Below, piece after piece: positions 15,309 through 63,176 of a stretch of DNA of 64,000 nt. Below the pieces are notes generated by a model. It searched no databases. It was not told where the DNA came from and was given only the letters and a program-made list of their open reading frames with translations. The stretch comes from Clostridia bacterium (GTDB lineage: Bacteria > Bacillota > Clostridia > Oscillospirales > CAG-272): contig JAFTJE010000033.1 of assembly GCA_017456545.1 (NCBI GenBank), positions 3,793 to 67,792 of the forward strand. The letters are read 5' to 3'. Position numbers and translations under genes: made by a program. How positions within the stretch are numbered: the stretch's first letter is position 1; the number at the start of each line of letters is the position of its first letter.

Positions 15309-15716
15309 ATGGTTAAACTTATTATTGGTGTTAAAGGCACAGGTAAAACAAAAGCACTTATTGAAATGATCAATGCAGCACTTGATAGTACAAAGGGTTC
15401 TGTTGTGTGTATCGAAAAGGGTACTAACCTTCAGCTTACCTTAAATTATAATTGTAGACTTATCAATTCCGATGAATATATGGTTTCCAATGCCAGTGAG
15501 CTTTACGGCTTTATTGCAGGACTTTTGGCAAGTAATCATGATATTACCGATTTATTTATTGATGCTACTTATAGAATCTGTCAGAGGGATGCAGCTGCAT
15601 TTGATAAGTTTGTTGATGAGGTTGATGAGCTTTCCTCTAAGTACGGTATGAATGTTGTGATGACAGTTTCTATGCCTACAGAAAACATTACAGATACAAT
15701 GAAAAAGTATCTTTAA
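15309..15716 (+). CDS. Small stand-alone P-loop NTPase-like protein (135 aa), function unknown
   Basis: Has Walker A-like GVKGTGKT at residues 7-14 and Walker B-like DLFIDA. A GGAGG ribosome-binding site is present. The gene has its own promoter and terminator. Confidence 0.5.
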   Translation: MVKLIIGVKGTGKTKALIEMINAALDSTKGSVVCIEKGTNLQLTLNYNCRLINSDEYMVSNASELYGFIAGLLASNHDITDLFIDATYRICQRDAAAFDKFVDEVDELSSKYGMNVVMTVSMPTENITDTMKKYL

Positions 15717-16606: not shown

Positions 16607-16690
16607 ACATATAAAATGTCAAATTATGTAATATTGCATATGCTATTACAGAAGAGTAGTTTTTCTTCAATATTACAGGAGGTAGACATT

Positions 16691-17539
16691 ATGCCGGATA
16701 ACAGACTTTGTTCAAATCCTCACGGCAGAGAAAATATCTGTATTGACACATATAGAATCCTTGATTCATGTAGAGATAAGGATTGCTTTGAAAATGTCAA
16801 GGTATATCTTACGGATTTTGGAGAGGAGATAATTGAACGCACATCAACCATCAGGGCAACCTGCTCTAAGATTGTTTCCGCATATATTGATGTAAGCGAG
16901 GTTCCATTTAATAGAGGTTTTTATCAGCTTGATATCAAAATATATGTAAAAATATCCTTTGAAGCATGCTTGTCACAGGGAAACATACAGGAATTTGAAG
17001 GTATTGCAGTAGTCGAAAAGAAGGTAGTTCTTTTCGGTAGCGAGGGAAATGTAAATATATTCAAGAGTGAACCCGGAAAATCAGGCTTCTGTCCTGAGAT
17101 AAGCTGCGATTGCACAAGGACAAATAATCTTCCCATTGCAGTTATAGAAACTGTAGATCCAGTAGTACTTAATGTAAAGGTAGTTGAGCCGCATGTATTT
17201 CCTTGCTGCTGCTGTTGCTGTTTGGATGATATTCCCGAATATGTTACAAACAGTGTACACGGAAAGCTTTGCGAAAGAGAAGATAAAACTCTTGTTGTGT
17301 CTCTTGGATTTTTCTCAGTTGTGAGAATAGAACGCCCTGCACAGCTTCTTATAAATGCTGTTGAATGCTGTATTCCTGAGAAGGAATGTATTACAGCTCA
17401 GGAAAATGACCCATGTACATTATTCAAATCTATGGCATTTCCAGTAGATGAATTCTGTCCCCCTATGCTAAATAAATTCAGTAACGGATGCTCTCAACAG
17501 CCTGACAATCACGGTAAAGGGTCCTGTGGATGTCATTAA
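16691..17539 (+). CDS. Cysteine-rich protein (24 Cys in 282 aa, includes a CCCCCC run); possible spore coat/exosporium component
   Basis: The start is moved to ATG 16691, behind AGGAGG. The protein has no signal peptide. The spore-layer call is by analogy only, not homology. Confidence 0.45.
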   Translation: MPDNRLCSNPHGRENICIDTYRILDSCRDKDCFENVKVYLTDFGEEIIERTSTIRATCSKIVSAYIDVSEVPFNRGFYQLDIKIYVKISFEACLSQGNIQEFEGIAVVEKKVVLFGSEGNVNIFKSEPGKSGFCPEISCDCTRTNNLPIAVIETVDPVVLNVKVVEPHVFPCCCCCCLDDIPEYVTNSVHGKLCEREDKTLVVSLGFFSVVRIERPAQLLINAVECCIPEKECITAQENDPCTLFKSMAFPVDEFCPPMLNKFSNGCSQQPDNHGKGSCGCH

Positions 17540-25246: not shown

Positions 25247-25291
25247 TTAAAAAATCAAATATAAACAAAACATTTATGGAGGAAAACAAAA

Positions 25292-25537
25292 ATGGCAGTT
25301 AAAATCAGACTTAAGAGAATGGGTGCAAAGAAGGCTCCCTTTTACCGTGTAATCGTTGCAGATGAAAGATCTCCCAGAGATGGCAAGTTCATCGATGAGA
25401 TCGGCTACTACAACCCTTTGAGAGATCCTGCTGAAATCAAGATCGATACAGCAAAGGCTGAAAAGTGGTTGAACGACGGTGCACAGCCCACTGAAACTGT
25501 AAAGTCTATCCTTAAGAAAAGCGGAATTGTTAAATAA
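25292..25537 (+). CDS. rpsP: 30S ribosomal protein S16
   Basis: [24 protein letters not shown] matches the canonical S16 N-terminus. Confidence 0.97.
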
Positions 25538-25592
25538 TCTACTTCCAATTAAAGAAAGGTGATTATTTTTACGAATAATCAAGGTGTGCAAT

Positions 25593-25829
25593 ATGATAAA
25601 TTTAAGCACAGTTCTTGGTAATATTGTAAAATCTATTGTCGATAATCCCGATAAGGTAGTTATTACAGAGCATGTGGAAGGCGACGAAGTGCTTTTGACA
25701 TTAACCGTAGCAGAGGAAGATGTCGGCATGGTTATAGGTAAACATGGCAAAATTGCCAAGGCGATGCGTACTGTGATGAAGACTGTTGCAAAAATTGATA
25801 ACAGAAAGGTTACAGTCGAAATTAAATAA
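25593..25829 (+). CDS. KH-domain RNA-binding protein (YlqC/UPF0109)
   Basis: GMVIGKHGKIAKAMRTV matches the KH GxxG loop, in the conserved position after rpsP. ATG 25593 is preferred over the upstream GTG. Confidence 0.85.
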   Translation: MINLSTVLGNIVKSIVDNPDKVVITEHVEGDEVLLTLTVAEEDVGMVIGKHGKIAKAMRTVMKTVAKIDNRKVTVEIK

Positions 25830-40626: not shown

Positions 40627-41547
40627 TTGAAATCTAAAAATTGGTTTGCATTATTTTTTACCGTATTATTATATATTTTATTTTTTACAAATGCAGAATA
40701 TCTAAAAATAAGCATCAATAATTCTATCGAGTTTTGCTTAAAATCCCTTATTCCATCAATGTTTCCGTTCATTTTACTATCTTATTTTGTAATAAATTCA
40801 AATCTTGCAGATGAAATGATTTATAAATATATAAAATCATCAAAAAATTTATTAGGCATTTGTAAAATATATCTTTCCTCCATTATATTAGGGTCTGTAT
40901 CAGGCTTTATAACAGGTCCAAAATGTATTTGCTCAATTTACTCCAAGGAAGAAGAAAATGATGCACAAGCCTTTTCTGATTCGGTAATATTATCCTCAAA
41001 TTGTGGTGTCGGATTTGTCATATCCTGTGTCGGAATTTTAATATGGAACAGTGTTGAATTTGGAATTTTTCTATATATTTCAGAGATTGTCACTTCTCTT
41101 ATTCTTGGTAAATTATTACTTAGGGGATACTGTAATAAAGAATATTGTTATACCCATTGCAAGCTTTCTCTTATAGATTCATTTACATATTCCGTATCAT
41201 CAGCCTTTTCCTCGGTTTTCAATGCATGCTCTTTTGTAATATTCTTTTCACTTTTATCAGATATTTTTGCACTCTATATCAATTCCACAATAAGTAGTCT
41301 TTTATCTATAATTTTTGAATTCAGTAAAGGCACCTTCAATGCCGTAAGCTTCAATAATGTTATTGTAAGTGCTTTTCTCACGGGTTTTTCTATAGGCTTC
41401 GGTGGCTTATCGGTTATGTTTCAAACATTCTCTATATGCTCCGGCTATCCTCTTAACAAAAAAAATTATATTGTCTTCAAGCTTTTACACGGTGTTATTC
41501 TGGGTATGTTAGCATCTCTGTATATTTTTTATAAGTATCTACTTTGA
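40627..41547 (+). CDS. Polytopic membrane protein, YlbJ-like (nucleoside-recognition/Gate-type)
   Basis: The N-terminus (..SINNSIEFCLKSLIPSMFPFILLS) resembles sporulation membrane protein YlbJ. A TTG start lies 14 nt after AGGAGGTG. At 306 aa it is shorter than YlbJ. Confidence 0.5.
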   Translation: MKSKNWFALFFTVLLYILFFTNAEYLKISINNSIEFCLKSLIPSMFPFILLSYFVINSNLADEMIYKYIKSSKNLLGICKIYLSSIILGSVSGFITGPKCICSIYSKEEENDAQAFSDSVILSSNCGVGFVISCVGILIWNSVEFGIFLYISEIVTSLILGKLLLRGYCNKEYCYTHCKLSLIDSFTYSVSSAFSSVFNACSFVIFFSLLSDIFALYINSTISSLLSIIFEFSKGTFNAVSFNNVIVSAFLTGFSIGFGGLSVMFQTFSICSGYPLNKKNYIVFKLLHGVILGMLASLYIFYKYLL

Positions 41548-42997: not shown

Positions 42998-43654
42998 TCA
43001 CAAGGTGTTCAAGAGTATTTCCTCAGCTGTTTTGGTCTTCTCTGCCTTAAAAAAGCCTGTGCCAAGAACAAAAATATTAGCACCGGCATCCGATGCTGTT
43101 TTGATGGTGGTATCATTTATACCTCCATCAACCTGAATATCAAGCTCTTTTCCAATAGATAAGGCGTATTCTCTGACCTTTCTAACCTTATCCATGGTAT
43201 CTACCATAAACTTCTGACCACCGAATCCCGGCTCTACAGTCATAATAAGAACCATATCTATATCCTTGATATACGGATAAAGAACTTCTGCCTCCGTTTT
43301 GGGCTTTATGGATATACCTGCCTTTATTCCTTTTGCTTTTATTTTCTCTATAGCATTAACAATACGGGTATTATCAAGTGCTTCATAATGGAAGGTGATA
43401 ATATCTGCTCCACAACGGATAAATTCATCTATATACCTGTCAGGCTCTACTATCATGGCATGAACATCAATTATAAGATCTGTGCATCCTCTGACAGCTG
43501 ATATAACAGGCATACCAAAGCTGATATTAGGTACAAAACAACCGTCCATAATATCTATGTGTACATATTTAGCACCGGATTCTTCAATTTTTTTAATTTC
43601 ATTTCCCAATTCCAGCATATTGGATGCAAGAATTGATGGAGATATGTGCTTCAT
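42998..43654 (-). CDS. rpe: Ribulose-phosphate 3-epimerase
   Basis: SPSILASN, HIDIMDG, TVEPGFGGQKF. The start is moved to ATG 43654, behind GAGAGG. Confidence 0.95.
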   Translation of the reverse strand: MKHISPSILASNMLELGNEIKKIEESGAKYVHIDIMDGCFVPNISFGMPVISAVRGCTDLIIDVHAMIVEPDRYIDEFIRCGADIITFHYEALDNTRIVNAIEKIKAKGIKAGISIKPKTEAEVLYPYIKDIDMVLIMTVEPGFGGQKFMVDTMDKVRKVREYALSIGKELDIQVDGGINDTTIKTASDAGANIFVLGTGFFKAEKTKTAEEILLNTL

Positions 43655-43774
43655 AAAAACCTCTCGTAAATGTAATATAATGTCAAATATTGGCAAAAAT
43701 CATATGATATTAGTAAAGCTCAGAGCAAGGGGTGAGACTGGAATTAAAAAATAAGGATGTGTAAGTTTTATATC

Positions 43775-44251
43775 TTATTCCTTGCTCTTTAATATACAAA
43801 CACTATGAGCACTTATCCCCTCTTTTCTTCCCGTAAAGCCAAGCTTTTCCTCGGTTGTAGCCTTTATATTTATCATTTCCACAGAAATATTAAGGGTATC
43901 TGCCAAAACAGTCCTCATATTTTGTATATGAGGAGCCATCTTGGGTGCCTGTGCAATTACAGTGCAATCAATATATTCTATTTTCAAGCCTTTATCCGAA
44001 ATTCTGTCAAGAACCCGTTTCAATAAAATTTTGCTATCTATATTTTCAAACTCGGGAGAATTATCCGGAAAAAGATTTCCTATATCCGGTAAGCTGGAAG
44101 CCCCAAGTAAAGCATCACAAATAGCGTGAATAAGTACATCACCGTCAGAATGGGCAAGAAAGCTCTTTTCATAGGGGATCATCACTCCACCTATTACAAG
44201 ATGATCTCCCTCGGTAAAACGATGTACATCATATCCGTGGCCTATTCTCAT
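43775..44251 (-). CDS. ispF: 2-C-methyl-D-erythritol 2,4-cyclodiphosphate synthase
   Basis: MRIGHGYDVHRF and HSDGDV motifs. Length is 158 aa. Confidence 0.95.
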   Translation of the reverse strand: MRIGHGYDVHRFTEGDHLVIGGVMIPYEKSFLAHSDGDVLIHAICDALLGASSLPDIGNLFPDNSPEFENIDSKILLKRVLDRISDKGLKIEYIDCTVIAQAPKMAPHIQNMRTVLADTLNISVEMINIKATTEEKLGFTGRKEGISAHSVCILKSKE

Positions 44252-45000
44252 TTATTGATATGCCCCTCTCTTTTGGAAATTACATATTCAGCGTAATCAA
44301 TATCCTCTTTAACCGTAATTTTAATGTTTTCTCTGCCTGTATCTACAAGCTTAACCTTAAATCCAGCCTTTTCAGCAAGCATGCAATCATCGGTAACCTC
44401 TATATTTTTTTGTCTTGCATTATATGCACTTGCTTTATAAGTTTTTGTTTCGAAGGCTTGTGGTGTCTGTACATTCCATACAAATTCTCTGTCAAGAGTG
44501 CGTTTAACAAGTCCGTTTTCATCAACCCACTTTATAGTGTCAATTGCCCTGCACGCTGCTGATGCCGCATTATATTCAACTGCTTTTTTAAGAACCGACT
44601 CTATAATTTCCTCAGTAACCAAGCACCTTGCCCCGTCATGGAAAATAACATATTTTGTTTTTTCGGAAATATGTCTGAAGCCTCGAAATGCAGAGTTTTG
44701 TCTTGTATCACCACCGACAACAATACATCTTATTTTTTTGAAATCGTTAATTACGATAAGCTCCTTATACTTTTGTAAATCCTCCTTACGGACAACCAAT
44801 ATAATTTCCTTTACGCATTTGGATTTTTCAAAAACAGAAATTGTTCTTTCAGCCACTCCCTTACCACAGACCTGAGCCATCTGTTTATTTTCCAAGCCCT
44901 TGCCAAATCTTGTTGAATTACCTGCACATAATATGATAGCTGATGTATATCCCTGTTTTACTGTATCAAAGGTCTTAGCAATTTTTGAAAATAATCCCAT
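44248..45000 (-). CDS. ispD: 2-C-methyl-D-erythritol 4-phosphate cytidylyltransferase
   Basis: AIILCAGNSTRFG (P-loop-like) and VGGDTRQNS. ATG 45000 sits behind GGGAGG. The 3' end overlaps ispF by 4 nt. Confidence 0.9.
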   Translation of the reverse strand: MGLFSKIAKTFDTVKQGYTSAIILCAGNSTRFGKGLENKQMAQVCGKGVAERTISVFEKSKCVKEIILVVRKEDLQKYKELIVINDFKKIRCIVVGGDTRQNSAFRGFRHISEKTKYVIFHDGARCLVTEEIIESVLKKAVEYNAASAACRAIDTIKWVDENGLVKRTLDREFVWNVQTPQAFETKTYKASAYNARQKNIEVTDDCMLAEKAGFKVKLVDTGRENIKITVKEDIDYAEYVISKREGHINK

Positions 45001-45107
45001 TTTTATACCTCCCGGTAGCAACTGTATATAAATGTATGTCTATAAAACAATTATTTATTTTATCATATAATATTTTAACACCGTTTGTCAATAAATTAGT
45101 ATAAAAA

Positions 45108-45135
45108 AATAAAAAAAGAGCCGAAAAAACGGCTC
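45108..45135 (-). terminator. Rho-independent terminator after the BlaI-like gene
   Basis: The arm gagccg pairs with cggctc, with a T-run on the minus strand. Confidence 0.7.
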
Positions 45136-45239
45136 AAAAATTTAATAATTCCAAAAAACCTATGAATCCTACGGTTTACACATTTGATGAGGTGAGCTAT
45201 ATCACCTACATCAAATCCGAAACTCGCTGTCGAAATTCA

Positions 45240-45617
45240 TCAATACTGTTCCTGAAGCCACTTTAGCATTTCATCAAGCTCATCATTTGGGAGTGTATTG
45301 TTACCGTAAAGCAAATCAAGCATCTTTACAAAAGAGCCACCGTGATATTTATTAAGAAAATCCACAGTAATACCACGAACATAATCTGTTTTTACAGCAT
45401 CAACAAAATAATATCTTTCCTTTCCCCTTTTTTCAGAGTGAATAAAACCTCTATCTTCAAGTCTTGTAAGGAATGAAATAAGAGTAGGTGCCTTCCAGCC
45501 CTTTGCTTTACCGACATTTTCCATAAGATATGCCGTATTGACCGGATAAGTCTTACTGCTCCAAAGGGCTACCATAACATCAAATTCAGCCTCGGGCAAT
45601 TTCTTTGATATGTCCAT
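45240..45617 (-). CDS. BlaI/MecI/CopY-family winged-helix repressor (orphan)
   Basis: LPEAEFDVMVALW...APTLISFLTRLEDRGFI..EKRGKERYYF is typical of the Penicillinase_R family. ATG 45617 is preferred, 7 nt after AAAGGAA. Confidence 0.75.
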   Translation of the reverse strand: MDISKKLPEAEFDVMVALWSSKTYPVNTAYLMENVGKAKGWKAPTLISFLTRLEDRGFIHSEKRGKERYYFVDAVKTDYVRGITVDFLNKYHGGSFVKMLDLLYGNNTLPNDELDEMLKWLQEQY

Positions 45618-45650
45618 TTTCATTTCCTTTCTTTTTTTAGTTGCTCTATT

Positions 45651-45679
45651 ATTATACACTTGTCTAATTTGTTTGTCAA
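45651..45679 (-). promoter_or_regulatory. Consensus sigma-A promoter of the BlaI-like gene
   Basis: On the minus strand: TTGACA, a 17-nt spacer, then TATAAT. Both hexamers are exact. Confidence 0.65.
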
Positions 45680-45701
45680 TAAGAATTTTATATTTTTCGA
45701 C

Positions 45702-45730
45702 AAAAAATTTGCACCGTTAAAAAACGGTGC
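45702..45730 (-). terminator. Rho-independent terminator after the ACP-like gene
   Basis: The arm gcaccg pairs with cggtgc, with a T-run on the minus strand. Confidence 0.7.
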
Positions 45731-45745
45731 GAGATGTGTCCGAAA

Positions 45746-45973
45746 TTAAAATGAGACCTTCTTTGCGGATACTTCAAAAATATCCGTAATATCACGAAGC
45801 TCTACTATTTCTTCATCTTCTATATGTATATCAAATATATTTTCAATACCCATTATTATCTTCATAAGAGTTAGAGAATCCATACCGAGCTCAACAAAGG
45901 TCATTTCTTCTCTCAGCTCCTCTACAGGTATGGAAAGATGTATGGAAATTATACCAAGAATTTTATCAAGCAT
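45746..45973 (-). CDS. Acyl/peptidyl carrier protein-like (75 aa, orphan)
   Basis: ELGMDSLTLMKI matches the phosphopantetheine attachment motif (G-x-D-S-L). The size and acidity fit an ACP. A GGAGG ribosome-binding site is present. Confidence 0.7.
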   Translation of the reverse strand: MLDKILGIISIHLSIPVEELREEMTFVELGMDSLTLMKIIMGIENIFDIHIEDEEIVELRDITDIFEVSAKKVSF

Positions 45974-46007
45974 TTATAGATTCCTCCTATTTTCTCATTC
46001 CTACATT

Positions 46008-46036
46008 ATTATATAACATATTTGTGTATTTTTCAA
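46008..46036 (-). promoter_or_regulatory. Sigma-A promoter of the ACP-like gene
   Basis: On the minus strand: TTGAAA, a 17-nt spacer, then TATAAT. Confidence 0.6.
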
Positions 46037-46044
46037 GTTTTTTA

Positions 46045-46073
46045 TTGACTTTATACTTTCAAATTATTATAAT
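46045..46073 (+). promoter_or_regulatory. Sigma-A promoter of the ROK-like gene, back-to-back with the ACP promoter
   Basis: TTGACT, a 17-nt spacer, then TATAAT. The two -35 boxes are 8 bp apart. Confidence 0.6.
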
Positions 46074-46083
46074 CAAATGGGTG

Positions 46084-46809
46084 ATGAATATGAAACACAA
46101 TGATATGAGAAACAAAAATGCTGTAGCTATTTTAGAATGCGTTAAAGAAAAGGGGTTATCAATTGAAGATATAAAATCCGAAACCGGCCTCAGTCATGTT
46201 ACCGTGAGAAAAATCGGAAATATGCTCTCCGATATGAAATACTTAAAGACATATAATATCATAGGAGATAAATTAGGTAGAAGAAGCCAATATTTTATCC
46301 TGTCTAACAGACCCTTCTCTGTTTATATGTTTGAAGACAAATATTCTTATATGGTAATTGGTATAAATTCCTTTGGCAATGTAATAATACGACATGACTA
46401 CATTAAAAAAATGAGATATACATATGAGGAAAACTTTTGGGAGGCTGTTAAATCAATTACTACACGCCCCGAGTATATTTACTGCCTTAATATATTTGCC
46501 AACTGCTATGACAGCTCCATATCTCTTTTCCCGGAATATATTACAGCAGTACGACTTAAAAAATTCATAGCTGAATATCTATGTCCGACAGACAGAGCTG
46601 TAATAATAGAATTTAACAAGGAATGCTATCTCTCTCTTTACGGTCACATAAACAAAACAAGTGCCACTCCCGAAGAAATACAAAAAATATTCCCCTGTGA
46701 TTATACAGTATCGTTTACGGGAGATCCTGTATTCGGTATGTTTGACGCATTACAATATGCCAACATTAAAGCGATGAAAGCGAATATACTAAATATTAAA
46801 GACCTTTAA
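46084..46809 (+). CDS. HTH protein with a ROK-repressor-like N-terminal module and a truncated, divergent C-terminus
   Basis: SETGLSHVTVRKIGNMLSDMKYLK...GDKLGRRSQYFILS follows the ROK/NagC N-terminal pattern (GLS..TV...GRRp..l.l). No sugar-kinase glycine loops or CxCGxxGC zinc motif are visible. The start is 46084 or 46090. Confidence 0.5.
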   Translation: MNMKHNDMRNKNAVAILECVKEKGLSIEDIKSETGLSHVTVRKIGNMLSDMKYLKTYNIIGDKLGRRSQYFILSNRPFSVYMFEDKYSYMVIGINSFGNVIIRHDYIKKMRYTYEENFWEAVKSITTRPEYIYCLNIFANCYDSSISLFPEYITAVRLKKFIAEYLCPTDRAVIIEFNKECYLSLYGHINKTSATPEEIQKIFPCDYTVSFTGDPVFGMFDALQYANIKAMKANILNIKDL

Positions 46810-46831
46810 TCAATTTATTAAAGGTCTTTTT
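46798..46831 (+). terminator. Rho-independent terminator
   Basis: The arm aaagaccttta pairs with taaaggtcttt, followed by a T-run. Confidence 0.8.
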
Positions 46832-46853
46832 ATTGTATTACAATAAATTTTTA

Positions 46854-46882
46854 TTGACATACAGCTAAGTATATTATATAAT
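46854..46882 (+). promoter_or_regulatory. Consensus sigma-A promoter of the DUF2975-HTH-flavoprotein operon
   Basis: TTGACA, a 17-nt spacer, then TATAAT. Both hexamers are exact. Confidence 0.65.
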
Positions 46883-46905
46883 ATAACAAAAAGGAGGTAA
46901 ATTAT

Positions 46906-47367
46906 ATGAATAAAAAATTATCAATACTGATTACATTTGTACTTATATTACTCGTAATGAGCAGCACAGCCATGTTTATCTTTTGGTTACCGGATGTGGC
47001 AATATATATAGGAGGTTTTATAAACAAAAATTACTCTATCATATATATTTTATCCTCTGTTATTTATACACTAACAGTAGCAATTTTTATAACAGGCTCA
47101 TATTTTATTTACGCTATATATAAGGATATAATTTTTGATAAAAAAACATCTACTGTCCTTACTACAATAGGCATAATGCTGCTTTTGAATTGCTCTGTTC
47201 TTATAGCTTCAAGCATCTGGATACTTTCTATAGGTGAAAGCTTATTATCTCCTGCTCTTATTTTTGTCTCTGCTCTTGGATATACTGTGTCCTCAGTATT
47301 ATTAATTCTTTCAAGCTATGTTAAAAAAGCTACTGAATTAAAGGAGGAGGTAGATCTTACTCTATGA
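46906..47367 (+). CDS. DUF2975-type (YoaS-like) four-TM membrane protein
   Basis: A ~150-aa protein with four hydrophobic segments and the C-terminal tail LKEEVDLTL typical of this family. A GGAGG ribosome-binding site is present. Confidence 0.65.
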   Translation: MNKKLSILITFVLILLVMSSTAMFIFWLPDVAIYIGGFINKNYSIIYILSSVIYTLTVAIFITGSYFIYAIYKDIIFDKKTSTVLTTIGIMLLLNCSVLIASSIWILSIGESLLSPALIFVSALGYTVSSVLLILSSYVKKATELKEEVDLTL

Positions 47368-47579
47368 TAATAATAAATATAGATGTAATGCTTGCAAAAA
47401 GAAAAATGTCCGTAGGTGAGCTATCAGAAAAGGTCGGTTTCACAATGGCAAATGTTTCTCTGCTTAAAAACGGTAAAATAAAAGCATTTAAGATATCTAC
47501 TCTTGATAAGCTATGTGAGGTTCTTAAATGTCAGCCCGGAGATCTACTTGAATATGTAGACGGTGAGGATAATGAATAA
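47364..47579 (+). CDS. YozG-type XRE-family HTH regulator (71 aa)
   Basis: DVMLAKRKMSVGELSEKVGFTMANVSLLKNGKIKAFKISTLDKLCEVLKCQPGDLLEY. Its start overlaps the upstream stop as ATGA. Confidence 0.8.
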   Translation: MIIINIDVMLAKRKMSVGELSEKVGFTMANVSLLKNGKIKAFKISTLDKLCEVLKCQPGDLLEYVDGEDNE

Positions 47580-48627
47580 GCATTATAATATTGTAATAAT
47601 AGGTGCCGGTCCCTCCGGATGTATATTTGCTTCAGAGCTATATAAGAGTAATAAAAATTATTCCATAGCACTTATTGACGGACAAACAGAGGAAAATAAA
47701 AAGCCCTGTGGTGGTCTTCTTGCTCCCGATGCCCAAAAGGAGCTTACAAAGCTGAATCTCACTCTCCCCAAATATATATTGACCGACCCTCAAATATTTG
47801 AGGTTGAAACAATAGACTTAAAAAGCCGTATCAAAAAATATTATCAAAGACATTATCTGAATATGGACAGATACAAATTTGATAAATGGCTTCTCTCCTT
47901 GATTCCGGAGGGAGTTGATGTAATCAATGACAGATGTATCTATATTAGAAAAAGTGAATCAATTTATAATTTGAAGCTGAAGAACGGTGTTGAAATATCC
48001 TGTGATTATATTGTCGGTGCAGATGGTGGAAGCTCAATAGTCAGAAGAACACTTTTCCCTGCTCTGACCTACAGGTATACCTCCATACAAGAATGGTTCA
48101 AATGTGATAAGGGTTTATTTCCATACTATTCCTGTATATTTGACCCAAATACAAGTGACAGCTGCTCCTGGACTATATTCAAGGATGATTACATAATATA
48201 CGGCGGTGCCTTCAAAACATTGGACTGTAAAACAAGGTACGAAGAACAGAAAAAAATGGTCGAAGAGTATATTGGTTATAAATTCGGTAAGCCTGAAAGA
48301 ACTGAGGCATGTATGCTTTCAAGTCCACGGAAATGGAAGGATTTTTTGTGTGGAAGGGAAAATGCCTATTTAATCGGTGAAGCCGCAGGATTTATAAGCT
48401 CCAGCTCCTTTGAAGGAATCAGCTCTGCTCTTGCAAGCGGTAAAATGCTATCATTGGCATTTATAAACAGTAAAAAAAGTAAAAATATATTGAAGCTATA
48501 TAAAAAATATTCTTTTAAGCTCAGAATCAAATTATATTTGAAAACCTTAAAAAGAAAAATACTGTGTTCTCCCTTTTTAAGATTTATAATTATGAAATCC
48601 GGTATCAAAAGTATAAAAAAATATTAA
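47572..48627 (+). CDS. FAD-dependent oxidoreductase, geranylgeranyl-reductase-like
   Basis: IVIIGAGPSGC (dinucleotide fold), KPCGGLL, VGADGGSSIVRR, LIGEAAGFISSSSFEGISSALASG, and a Lys-rich amphipathic C-tail. Its start overlaps the yozG-like stop. Confidence 0.7.
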   Translation: MNKHYNIVIIGAGPSGCIFASELYKSNKNYSIALIDGQTEENKKPCGGLLAPDAQKELTKLNLTLPKYILTDPQIFEVETIDLKSRIKKYYQRHYLNMDRYKFDKWLLSLIPEGVDVINDRCIYIRKSESIYNLKLKNGVEISCDYIVGADGGSSIVRRTLFPALTYRYTSIQEWFKCDKGLFPYYSCIFDPNTSDSCSWTIFKDDYIIYGGAFKTLDCKTRYEEQKKMVEEYIGYKFGKPERTEACMLSSPRKWKDFLCGRENAYLIGEAAGFISSSSFEGISSALASGKMLSLAFINSKKSKNILKLYKKYSFKLRIKLYLKTLKRKILCSPFLRFIIMKSGIKSIKKY

Positions 48628-48666
48628 TAAAAACTGACTGTACCTCATTGTACAGTCAGTTTTTTG
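48628..48666. terminator. Bidirectional terminator (flavoprotein gene / polC convergent)
   Basis: The arm aaactgactgtac pairs with gtacagtcagttt. Confidence 0.8.
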
Positions 48667-48675
48667 CTTATATTA

Positions 48676-61332: not shown

Positions 61333-63063
61333 TTATTCTGTGGGTTCACCGGGTTCGGTAGGTTCACTTGGCTCTACAGGCTCATCCTCGGGAAGTGCCT
61401 TTGCAGTTGTATAAGAAGTGTAAACCGTTGTATATACTTCCATAGCATCCTTGTATGCAGCAGAATTTTTGATTGCCAATACCGCTTCATTTGTTGTTTG
61501 GGCATTGCTCCACTCTGCAGCAAATGTAGCAAACTCCTCTGCAGACATATCCTCAATAGTATCATATACAGAGTCGTTCAATGTGTTAAGAGCTGCTATT
61601 TTAGTATTGTATTCACCCTTCTTAGACAGCTTATTGTAGTAAGCATCGAATCCTGCATAAGGATCTGTAATGGAATCATAGTTAACCTTTTTAACATCGG
61701 TCCAATAATCCATGGATACACCCTCAGCAACATATGTAAGGTATCCATTACCTGTGTAAAGAGAATTCATCTTATATGCATACTTGCCCTGATTATCCTT
61801 AATCATTTCAAGTACACCATCTTCGTTTATCTCGTAATCATCATCCTTAATGCCGTACTGCAAAAGTGTACGAATCTCTGCATCTGTCTGAAGATTATAT
61901 ACAATGTCCTTTGCTCTTTCGTACTCAATAGAATAATCGGTTACTGCAAATACAGAATCAAAAATGCTTTCCTCGGATAATACAGGAACCTTTGTCTTGA
62001 TAACATAGTAATCCTCCTCATAATCCTTGATTTCTGTATAGTCGCATTCAATATAAGAAACTGCTATCTTCTTGTCAGTTTCGGAAGCCTCACCGTATGT
62101 TTTATAAAGCTTCATGAAAGTAACATAATCAATATTACCAAGTGTATCAGTGGGAGCACCGCCGTTAACCCCGGATCCTACAAGTGAGAAATCATCCTCA
62201 TTGCCCCAATATGTTAAAGGAGCATCATCCAATGTAGCTGAGAAAGGAATTGTATTTGAAACTGATGTTACACTGTTTACAAACTTCTCAAGCTCTACAT
62301 AATCAACATCTCCGTTATCATTTGTGATGGAGTTGATATCAAAATCGGGAACAAAGCTTGCAACAGACTTGTCGATAAGCATGTACTTATACTCTCCATC
62401 AGAGAAAAGATGATTGTTGGGAATACCGTAAATTTCATAGGAATTACCTGTCTTTACTTTAAGAGCATCAAGAATCTCTGATCTTATAGTCTTATTGATC
62501 TGGTTATAATTAGAAGTAGTCAAATCAGTCTTCCAAGAAGAAAGCTGACCCTTACTGTAGTACTTAACATAGTCTTCTTTGCTTCTGATAAGTATGATGT
62601 CAAGCTGAGTATCACGAACTTTGGGATATAAAAGCTGAATTGTGCCGTTTTCTACTCTTCCGGCTGTTGTCTTGTATTCAGGATAATCCTCGTGTCCTAC
62701 AAGAGAGCTGGGTTTCCTATAGTCTTTATTGCTCTCCTTGTTCTTCAGTTCATTCATCTTATTGGCAAGGACAGTGTCATATTCGCCGTCATTTACCGCA
62801 ATGATTTTAATTTGAGCACACATTTCTTTGCGAAGTCTAACATTAATCGCCTCTTCAACTGCAGCAAGTCTTTCCTGGAACTCAGGTGAGCTTGGATTTG
62901 CATCTGTAGGGATCATGATATTAAATGTGAGGGGTACCTTTGCTGTATTTCCAACAATGTCCTTAATAATCTGCTCATCGGTTCTGTTATCAGAGCAAGA
63001 TGTAAGGAAAACTGAGCACAACATCAATATTGCGAGTGCAAAACATAATAATCTTTTTTTCAT
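61333..63063 (-). CDS. Large lipoprotein, solute-binding-protein-like, with an acidic Pro/Glu-rich C-tail
   Basis: Has a signal peptide with lipobox LTSC. ATG 63063 lies behind GGAGG. The protein is ~576 aa. YGIPNN and the overall composition resemble large family-1 SBPs, but no adjacent permease genes are present. Confidence 0.45.
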   Translation of the reverse strand: MKKRLLCFALAILMLCSVFLTSCSDNRTDEQIIKDIVGNTAKVPLTFNIMIPTDANPSSPEFQERLAAVEEAINVRLRKEMCAQIKIIAVNDGEYDTVLANKMNELKNKESNKDYRKPSSLVGHEDYPEYKTTAGRVENGTIQLLYPKVRDTQLDIILIRSKEDYVKYYSKGQLSSWKTDLTTSNYNQINKTIRSEILDALKVKTGNSYEIYGIPNNHLFSDGEYKYMLIDKSVASFVPDFDINSITNDNGDVDYVELEKFVNSVTSVSNTIPFSATLDDAPLTYWGNEDDFSLVGSGVNGGAPTDTLGNIDYVTFMKLYKTYGEASETDKKIAVSYIECDYTEIKDYEEDYYVIKTKVPVLSEESIFDSVFAVTDYSIEYERAKDIVYNLQTDAEIRTLLQYGIKDDDYEINEDGVLEMIKDNQGKYAYKMNSLYTGNGYLTYVAEGVSMDYWTDVKKVNYDSITDPYAGFDAYYNKLSKKGEYNTKIAALNTLNDSVYDTIEDMSAEEFATFAAEWSNAQTTNEAVLAIKNSAAYKDAMEVYTTVYTSYTTAKALPEDEPVEPSEPTEPGEPTE

Positions 63064-63176
63064 TTCGGTGAAATCCTCCAATTTCTTATACAAGTACAAT
63101 TATACAATAAGAAAGTATTTTTGTCAAGTTGTTTTATGCATCATTTACAAATTTTAACACTTGTACGGCAATTTTA

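Follow-up and report, generated by a model that had tools for sequence, protein, structure and literature searches.

Whether six small genes between polC and ispD in a Clostridia bacterium constitute one acquired system, and whether their arrival disrupted the gene order downstream of polC, are the questions raised by a 64,000-nucleotide stretch of contig JAFTJE010000033.1 (hereafter the window, meaning this whole stretch; positions are counted from its first letter). In Bacillus and Clostridium sensu stricto, the order is usually polC-rimP-nusA-infB. In the window, the upstream series rpsB-tsf-pyrH-frr-uppS-(cdsA)-dxr-rseP-ispG-polC is intact, but no nusA lies within 10 kb downstream of polC, either here or in any of 80 related genomes. 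The six genes encode, from the ispD side, a BlaI/MecI/CopY-family repressor (blaI), an acyl carrier protein (ACP; acp), a protein of ~235 residues (g3), a DUF2975 membrane protein of the YoaS type, a YozG-like helix-turn-helix (HTH) regulator and a flavin adenine dinucleotide (FAD) protein of the CbrA family. A preliminary description of the locus had treated them as a single accessory islet, and had placed the synteny break at this islet. Our analysis indicates that the interval is probably a mosaic of two independent modules, A (45240-46809) and B (46830-48664), neither of which caused the loss of the polC-rimP-nusA linkage. Module A would be a clade-ancestral block of three monocistronic genes (blaI, acp and g3), and module B a self-contained cassette (DUF2975-HTH-FAD) whose insertion between the terminators of polC and g3 would date to the common ancestor of those relatives in which PolC is at least 95% identical.

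The evidence that carries this conclusion is the distribution of the genes in relatives. Proteins of the window were mapped onto 80 loci around polC, one genome per species. In loci L004-L014, where the C terminus of PolC is at least 77% identical, a convergent g3-like gene (~235 aa) lies 3′ of polC and is followed by acp, a 125-aa BlaI-like gene, ispD, ispF and rpe, the later genes of this series being visible only where the contig extends far enough. The same g3-acp-blaI arrangement occupies the polC-ispD interval in L084-L086 and in the metagenomic contigs L174-L176 (BlaI 67-69% identical), and is kept even at loci with a PolC C terminus only 77-81% identical. The genes g3, acp and blaI are clade-core genes, not accessory ones. 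The full DUF2975-HTH-FAD trio, on the other hand, was found only in the window, L004 and L084-L086 (PolC C terminus 95-99% identical). In L015 (95%), the FAD gene is present before the contig ends. Throughout L005-L014 no cassette was found, neither in L005 (90%) nor in any of the 77-81% loci. In species without the cassette, a single bidirectional terminator hairpin serves both g3 and polC. The FAD proteins of the window, L004, L084 and L085 group together in a neighbor-joining tree, which fits a single gain of the cassette. The earlier label of accessory islet thus holds for the DUF2975-HTH-FAD insertion and fails for g3, acp and blaI, and the expectation that all six genes would be gained or lost as a unit was contradicted by the comparison of the ispD-polC interval in relatives, where the two modules are independently present, an outcome that the preliminary description had itself named as telling against it.

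The cassette also exists elsewhere. The same gene order, including the overlapping HTH/FAD junction, recurs in the unrelated neighborhoods of L087, L092, L179, L180 and L116. Among near relatives of the FAD protein, four of six independent contexts carry a DUF2975-HTH_26-FAD operon (L087, L092, L179 and L180), and L090 and L178 are without it. In a broader metagenome sample, an HTH gene is adjacent at 2 of the 60 loci with enough upstream sequence, one of which (L116) has a detectable DUF2975 gene as well. Because other copies of the cassette stand in unrelated neighborhoods, its position beside uppS, dxr, ispG, ispD and ispF looks coincidental. The function of the FAD family could not be read from conserved neighbors, which are lineage-dependent, none being universal.

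Other genes have been found at or near the same site. The polC 3′ flank of L011 holds a gene for a 504-aa ART-PolyVal (ADP-ribosyltransferase) protein (L011:11612-13126), that of L084 an extra unannotated 218-aa open reading frame (ORF; L084:9084-9740), and in L014 an SPFH/Band-7 gene (L014:12382-13452) lies between g3 and acp. The polC 3′ flank is a locally permissive site, a small insertion hot spot in this clade.

The break in synteny is a separate and older matter. As a probe we used an E. coli NusA sequence that was confirmed as NusA by Pfam (NusA_N, 134 bits; KH_5, 102 bits). It had no match in the window, and none of the 80 polC loci yielded one within 10 kb of polC; the sequence 3′ of polC is at least 3 kb long in 52 outgroup loci and at least 8 kb long in 36. 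Where this region was spot-checked in distant loci, the genes were unrelated ones, for an XRE regulator, a HisRS-like protein and a phosphoesterase. Since no NusA lies near polC in the outgroup loci, the loss of linkage predates the clade and has nothing to do with the six genes. The polC-rimP-nusA break is an old, group-wide feature, and not the work of an islet.

Module B contains the largest of the six proteins, which passes the NCBIfam equivalog model NF008519 (PRK11445) at 405.4 bits (cutoff 303). In a pairwise alignment it is 42% identical to E. coli CbrA (YidS) over residues 3-350 of 351 (E = 2e-96), and a translated search of plasmid records matched E. coli cbrA, annotated there as ‘colicin M resistance protein’. 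The two proteins align over their full length and have in common the geranylgeranyl reductase fold and the motifs GxGxxG, KPCGGLLAPDAQ, YSCIFD and GEAAGFIS. A PCGG motif is conserved as well, and the family is large (4058 homolog matches). The AF2 model of the FAD protein has a predicted local distance difference test score (pLDDT) of 90.8, and its top Foldseek matches are the archaeal geranylgeranyl reductases 4opt, 3atq and 3oz2 (template modeling (TM) scores 0.77-0.82). A sequence profile matches 3oz2 at E = 1e-9, and this profile was needed, as the single sequence gave no direct match in the PDB. The protein falls below the cutoff for canonical geranylgeranyl reductases (TIGR02032; 88.9 bits vs 158.8), to which it is related only at the superfamily level. 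The earlier designation ‘GGR-like flavoprotein’ was therefore right about the fold and can be narrowed: the protein is a homolog of CbrA.

E. coli CbrA resembles geranylgeranyl reductases and confers resistance to colicin M; it does so by reducing undecaprenyl phosphate (C55-P), lipid I and lipid II to forms with a saturated alpha-isoprene unit (PMC8469651). Its gene belongs to the CreBC regulon (PMC3599342). By homology, the enzyme of the window would catalyze the FAD-dependent reduction of a double bond of the polyprenyl lipid carrier, a change that would alter susceptibility to agents attacking this carrier. The setting differs from that in E. coli in two respects: the host, an anaerobe of Gram-positive type, lacks the outer-membrane route by which colicin M is taken up, and the gene, instead of belonging to CreBC, is translationally coupled to those of a YozG-like HTH regulator and a DUF2975 protein. 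In another lineage of the CbrA family, 11 metagenome loci (within L103-L114; for example, L103:3387-4007) have in place of YoaS-YozG an upstream gene for a membrane protein of ~206 aa, which the FAD gene overlaps by a few nucleotides; this is a second recurrent coupling of a CbrA-like protein with a small membrane protein.

The two genes upstream of the FAD gene correspond to a known pair. The YoaS-YozG pair forms a conserved operon with inverted-repeat operators upstream (bioRxiv 10.64898/2026.09.15.751765), and YoaS-like membrane proteins are recurrent partners of Xre regulators (Makarova et al., PMC2701414). Module B has in common with this operon its gene order, its overlapping ORFs (the HTH ORF overlaps the DUF2975 stop by 4 nt, and the FAD ORF overlaps the HTH ORF by 8 nt) and the presence of an inverted-repeat operator in AT-rich DNA ahead of the first gene. 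The YoaS-YozG operon is conserved across phyla; module B differs in adding a third, enzymatic cargo gene of the cbrA type. The DUF2975 protein matches PF11188 only just above the cutoff and has about four hydrophobic segments in a hydropathy scan. In comparison with cassette copies elsewhere, it is 34-43% identical, and the HTH protein 77-90%, including copies in unrelated genomes. At 8 of 8 scanned cassette loci, a 17-bp palindrome (TTATYR-N5-YRATAA) stands at the same offset, with 7 bp between it and the −35 box. Where its arms differ among loci, the symmetry is mostly kept. The palindrome occurs once in the window, and the L004 copy is, as read by eye, identical to TTATTGTATTACAATAA. A dimer of the YozG-like protein may bind this palindrome beside the −35 box and so autoregulate the operon, the site itself being conserved, and the co-translated membrane protein may adjust the activity of the repressor when it receives a signal from the membrane or envelope. 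Read from its sequence, module B is a self-contained and probably self-regulated YoaS-YozG operon that carries a gene of the cbrA type as cargo, a combination that appears to be undescribed.

In module A, the repressor is unusually conserved. PF03965 covers it from profile position 3 to 114 of 115, and it aligns over its full length with MecI (1okr); 367 tight homologs were found. Its identity across the clade is 70-98%, and at distant loci it is still 70-81% where that of IspD is 55-61%. The promoter block of blaI (TTGACAAACAWATTAGACAAGTGTATAAT, including the spacer) has one variable position (A/T) in 11 of 12 species, with two more in L014, and its flanks are barely alignable in the clade alignment. 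Such a nearly invariant promoter-spacer block amid poorly conserved DNA points to autoregulation: the repressor may control its own transcription, with the sequence between the −35 and −10 boxes as its operator. No further copy of the operator core was found in the window, so other targets must lie outside it.

Like BlaI, MecI and CopY repressors, then, the protein of the window has a full-length Penicillinase_R domain and a conserved site overlapping its own promoter, but it departs from each of them. No gene for an M56 (BlaR1/MecR1) sensor stands beside blaI in any relative, and none was seen in the scanned ORFs of the window or among the genes called on the source contig. The Asn-Phe cleavage site of MecI aligns with Leu-Leu/Tyr and is not conserved. 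The C-terminal Cys motif of CopY is missing, and the protein scores far below the resistance and copper subfamily models (MecI, BlaI and CopY/TcrY; best scores 40 bits vs 250 and 38 vs 122). The conserved operator block also differs from the TACA-N2-TGTA boxes of BlaI and CopY; such boxes were rejected as operators of this locus, as none lies in its promoters and the sole one in the locus falls within the DUF2975 ORF. The box TACANNTGTA occurs in the window at 2247, 5285, 36971, 46932, 49660 and 58950, six times against 1.05 expected, and 1 of 100 shuffles reaches six. With the YoaS-YozG operon, CbrA (NF008519) and a BlaI/MecI/CopY-family repressor to which its parts can be assigned, the composition of the interval is not, as had been stated, without counterpart among named systems.

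The ACP falls below every NCBIfam cutoff for AcpP (for example, TIGR00517: 35.3 bits vs 70.45). The phosphopantetheine serine of its DSL motif is kept in all homologs of the clade, and its identity, outside close relatives, is 35-51% in distant clade loci (PolC C terminus ~80%). The retained motif, together with the low scores and low identity, marks it as a specialized carrier and not the housekeeping one. No partner enzyme for it was found in the locus.

g3 is the one protein of the six without a recognizable domain: it matches no Pfam family, including ROK (PF00480). Its family is tiny, with 12 close homologs and, in a profile search, 52 representative clusters among 1.84 billion, all of ~235 aa. 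A homolog occupies the same position in every clade locus, although only 16-44% identical; just three positions are invariant, among them the Thr of the recognition helix and the Gly of the wing. The AF2 model rests on a shallow alignment of 11 sequences and has a pLDDT of 67.8, with a confident N-terminal winged helix-turn-helix (wHTH). Foldseek matches it to three ROK repressors (Lmo0178, Mlc and TM1224) and to MecR2, an anti-repressor. With ROK repressors (Mlc, NagC and Lmo0178) and MecR2, g3 would share a winged helix followed by beta-beta-beta-alpha ASKHA-like subdomains, a likeness that is predicted only. It differs from them in its length (~235 aa against 360-400 aa) and in leaving PF00480 unmatched; its sequence also shows no glycine-rich phosphate loop and no Zn-binding Cys motif, and its family is confined to the clusters given above. 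The earlier term ‘ROK-like’ thus agrees with the predicted fold and finds no counterpart in the sequence family. The −35 boxes of acp and g3 (AAAGTCAA ... CTTGAAA) are conserved across the clade, and the simplest reading is that g3 would be a local regulator of this divergent promoter pair. The g3 family appears to be undescribed. A further protein, P0012 (from a 1030-nt ENA contig), joins the C-terminal third of a g3 homolog to a segment of UppS (PF01255); this points either to an error of gene calling or to a relative that has g3 and uppS side by side.

Three other explanations of the interval have to be weighed against the two-module reading. We give almost no credence to the idea that the six genes form one accessory system in which the regulators control a carrier and a reductase acting together, for example on an ACP-bound lipid. 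The genes are adjacent, and all six are kept together in the window, L004 and L084-L086, but the two halves differ in phyletic pattern, and every unit is served by a promoter and a terminator of its own. At no fewer than five other places the cassette is found with none of ACP, BlaI and g3 beside it, and g3-acp-blaI stands without the cassette in at least ten species. Moreover, 0 of 80 metagenomic FAD-family loci have a homolog of ACP, BlaI or g3 nearby. The coupling of ACP to the FAD protein was rejected because none of these loci has an ACP in its vicinity; the carrier protein and the lipid-type reductase are not linked. That the whole interval, or the cassette alone, is the remnant of a mobile element (an integrative element, or a phage or plasmid fragment) is very unlikely. 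It would agree with the insertion hot spot, with the ART-PolyVal domain of L011, which is typical of polyvalent proteins of phages and conjugative elements, with the many unrelated contexts of the cassette and with a GC (guanine plus cytosine) content down to 0.26 at 46750-47249. The locus ORFs, however, include no integrase or transposase, in line with the preliminary description, there is no tRNA in the 64 kb, and meaningful flanking direct or inverted repeats are absent; the junctions show terminator hairpins only. Target-site duplications were rejected, as the repeat scan gave only low-identity AT-rich pairs, and a perfect 14-mer at 45098 and 48610 was dismissed as chance because it spans both modules, which differ in history. 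A PADLOC search for anti-phage defense systems was negative, giving for the six proteins only weak, generic HTH matches (E of at least 1.8e-4), and there were no close plasmid or phage matches. Plasmid or phage carriage was likewise rejected: the four matching ‘plasmid’ records all contain E. coli cbrA at 42% identity; three are chromosome-sized, and in the one inspected cbrA has chromosomal-type neighbors. Two 174-kb ‘Campylobacter phage’ records (MG065691.1, 71126-72136; MG065686.1, 101987-102997) contain a cbrA-like ORF at 42.0% identity, compared with 42.0-42.3% for E. coli cbrA itself, and these ORFs may be E. coli-derived sequence.

The remaining alternative concerns module A. MecR2 is an anti-repressor of MecI and is encoded beside it (PMC3406092), which offers a parallel for viewing g3 as a MecR2-like anti-repressor that would bind the neighboring BlaI/MecI-family repressor and lift its repression, in place of the missing BlaR1/MecR1 sensor-protease. 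MecR2 (4ija) is indeed among the top fold matches of g3 (E = 2e-6), and the two genes are strictly co-located across the clade. The lack of an M56 sensor in the scanned ORFs and source-contig gene calls would fit as well, as would the Leu-Leu/Tyr at the Asn-Phe site of MecI. We nevertheless regard this as unlikely. Ordinary ROK repressors match g3 equally well or better (5f7q, E = 1e-7), and g3 is ~140 aa shorter than MecR2; it keeps the hallmarks of a DNA-binding wHTH, with its invariant recognition-helix Thr and a Gly-Arg/Lys wing, and is transcribed divergently from acp, not together with blaI. Its fast divergence (16-44% identity), set against 70-98% for the BlaI-like protein, fits a tight protein-protein interface poorly.

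Our own reading, in which an ancestral module A was joined by a YoaS-YozG-CbrA cassette, has several points against it. Between the window and L084/L085, the identity of the FAD genes is no more than 63-67%, hardly higher than the 57-63% of external copies, so that replacement by recombination, instead of one gain of the cassette, could also explain the pattern. At 58 of 60 metagenomic CbrA-family loci with enough upstream sequence, the YoaS-YozG partners are absent, which makes the coupling specific to a sub-lineage. The colicin M phenotype of CbrA belongs to a Gram-negative setting, and the substrate in Clostridia is a prediction by analogy. The assignment of the C-terminal part of g3 to a ROK fold is soft, given three invariant residues and a moderate model, and all of the regulatory roles proposed here are inferred from position and conservation.

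The layout of the interval agrees with separate transcription units (Table 1). All six ORFs were confirmed between ispD and polC, at 45001-48675, as first described, five of them with recognizable domains; by gene call on the source contig, ispD starts at 45000. Five near-consensus promoters were found, for blaI and DUF2975 (12 of 12 positions), acp and g3 (11 of 12) and ispD (11 of 12, with an 18-nt spacer), bearing out the strong promoters reported earlier. In 1000 runs of a first-order Markov simulation, sites matching at least 11 of 12 positions numbered 0.33 on average and never more than 3, against the five seen here in 3.9 kb; the whole window has 13 of them, these five included. Hairpin terminators also stand 3′ of acp, blaI and g3, and the bidirectional terminator after polC is present as had been noted. 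A search of the spacers of the interval for structured RNAs and riboswitches gave no Rfam match at E ≤ 1.

Table 1. Genes and transcription signals of the polC-ispD interval, with positions in the window.
Feature	Position	Strand	Module	Basis or remark
BlaI/MecI/CopY-family repressor, 125 aa	45240-45617	-	A	PF03965, 58.5 bits
Divergent stand-alone acyl carrier protein (ACP), 75 aa	45746-45973	-	A	PF00550, 39.7 bits; DSL serine
g3, ~235 aa	46084-46809 (likely start ATG 46090)	+	A	No Pfam match; predicted wHTH + reduced ASKHA/ROK fold
DUF2975/YoaS-like membrane protein, 153 aa	46906-47367	+	B	PF11188, 27.2 bits (cutoff 27)
YozG-like Cro/C1 HTH_26 regulator, 71 aa	47364-47579	+	B	PF13443, 80.1 bits
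CbrA-family FAD protein, 351 aa	47572-48627	+	B	NF008519, 405.4 bits
blaI promoter with probable autoregulatory operator	45651-45679	-		12/12 consensus; promoter scan, clade alignment
Intrinsic terminator 3′ of acp	45711-45730	-		Hairpin kept in relatives
Divergent back-to-back promoters: acp 46036-46008 (-), g3 46045-46073 (+)	46008-46073			Both 11/12
Hairpin terminator 3′ of g3	46798-46829			Terminator scan and junction comparison
17-bp palindrome TTATTGTATTACAATAA, probable YozG-like operator	46830-46846			7 bp upstream of −35 box
Cassette promoter TTGACA-17-TATAAT	46854-46882	+		12/12 match
Bidirectional terminator common to cassette and polC	48629-48664			15-bp stem, scored on both strands
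blaI-ispD spacer	45001-45239	-		Hairpin without U-tract ~45182-45214; terminator 45135-45118; ispD promoter 45091-45062

Directly 3′ of the blaI stop, on the minus strand, lies a long stem-loop without a U-tract (45182-45214). A hairpin is present there in every clade member (L004-L014, L084-L085), formed by unrelated sequences across the clade, with no Rfam match and with a canonical terminator 40-60 nt further on; it could be a 3′ stabilizer or a protein-binding structure.

On the polC side, NCBIfam confirmed rpsB, tsf, pyrH, frr, uppS, dxr, rseP and ispG; the identities of polC, ispD and ispF were confirmed too. The block that had been called intact is thus confirmed for its named genes except cdsA, a label unconfirmed for the 273-aa ORF in question, which gave no match at the strict filter of E ≤ 1e-30. 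On the other side, ispD-ispF-rpe, followed by a convergent cysteine desulfurase gene and a selenium/sulfur carrier gene, form a stable block in the window (42998-45021) and in clade loci, with a VanZ-like gene added after rpe in some relatives (L174-L176). The remainder of the window is housekeeping sequence (ispA, tlyA, argR, recN, murB, whiA, dnaE, PBP1A, dacA-like, pgi, ffh, argS, rhaA and others). Several sizeable ORFs, the longest of them 588 aa, could be given no Pfam family, either at the threshold used or in the source-contig gene calls: 61333-63099 (-), 16616-17539 (+), 15309-15716 (+), 25274-25759 (-) and 40627-41547 (+).

As an islet, then, the interval is nothing unusual, since it resolves into a clade-core block and a small inserted operon beside an old break. 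What module A offers is a strictly syntenic trio that marks an uncultured clade: the mini-ROK regulator g3, the divergent ACP and the orphan repressor of the BlaI family, which is highly conserved. This trio may be an undescribed regulatory circuit. The YoaS-YozG-CbrA operon suggests a testable link between a widespread regulator pair and the modification of a lipid carrier, and would extend CbrA-type chemistry to gut Firmicutes. Tentatively, and as a possibility that we rate as rather low, YoaS-YozG could be a membrane-coupled transcriptional switch, responsive to the condition of the envelope or lipid carrier, that in this sub-lineage of gut Clostridia drives inducible, CbrA-type saturation of C55-P, a form of self-protection against toxins directed at lipid II or C55-P in Gram-positive-type anaerobes. 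If this were true, the coupled cbrA cargo would be the first functional handle on the widespread, uncharacterized YoaS-YozG operon. The most useful lead is accordingly the precisely defined unit of operator, repressor, membrane protein and CbrA, which could make the function of YoaS-YozG experimentally accessible.

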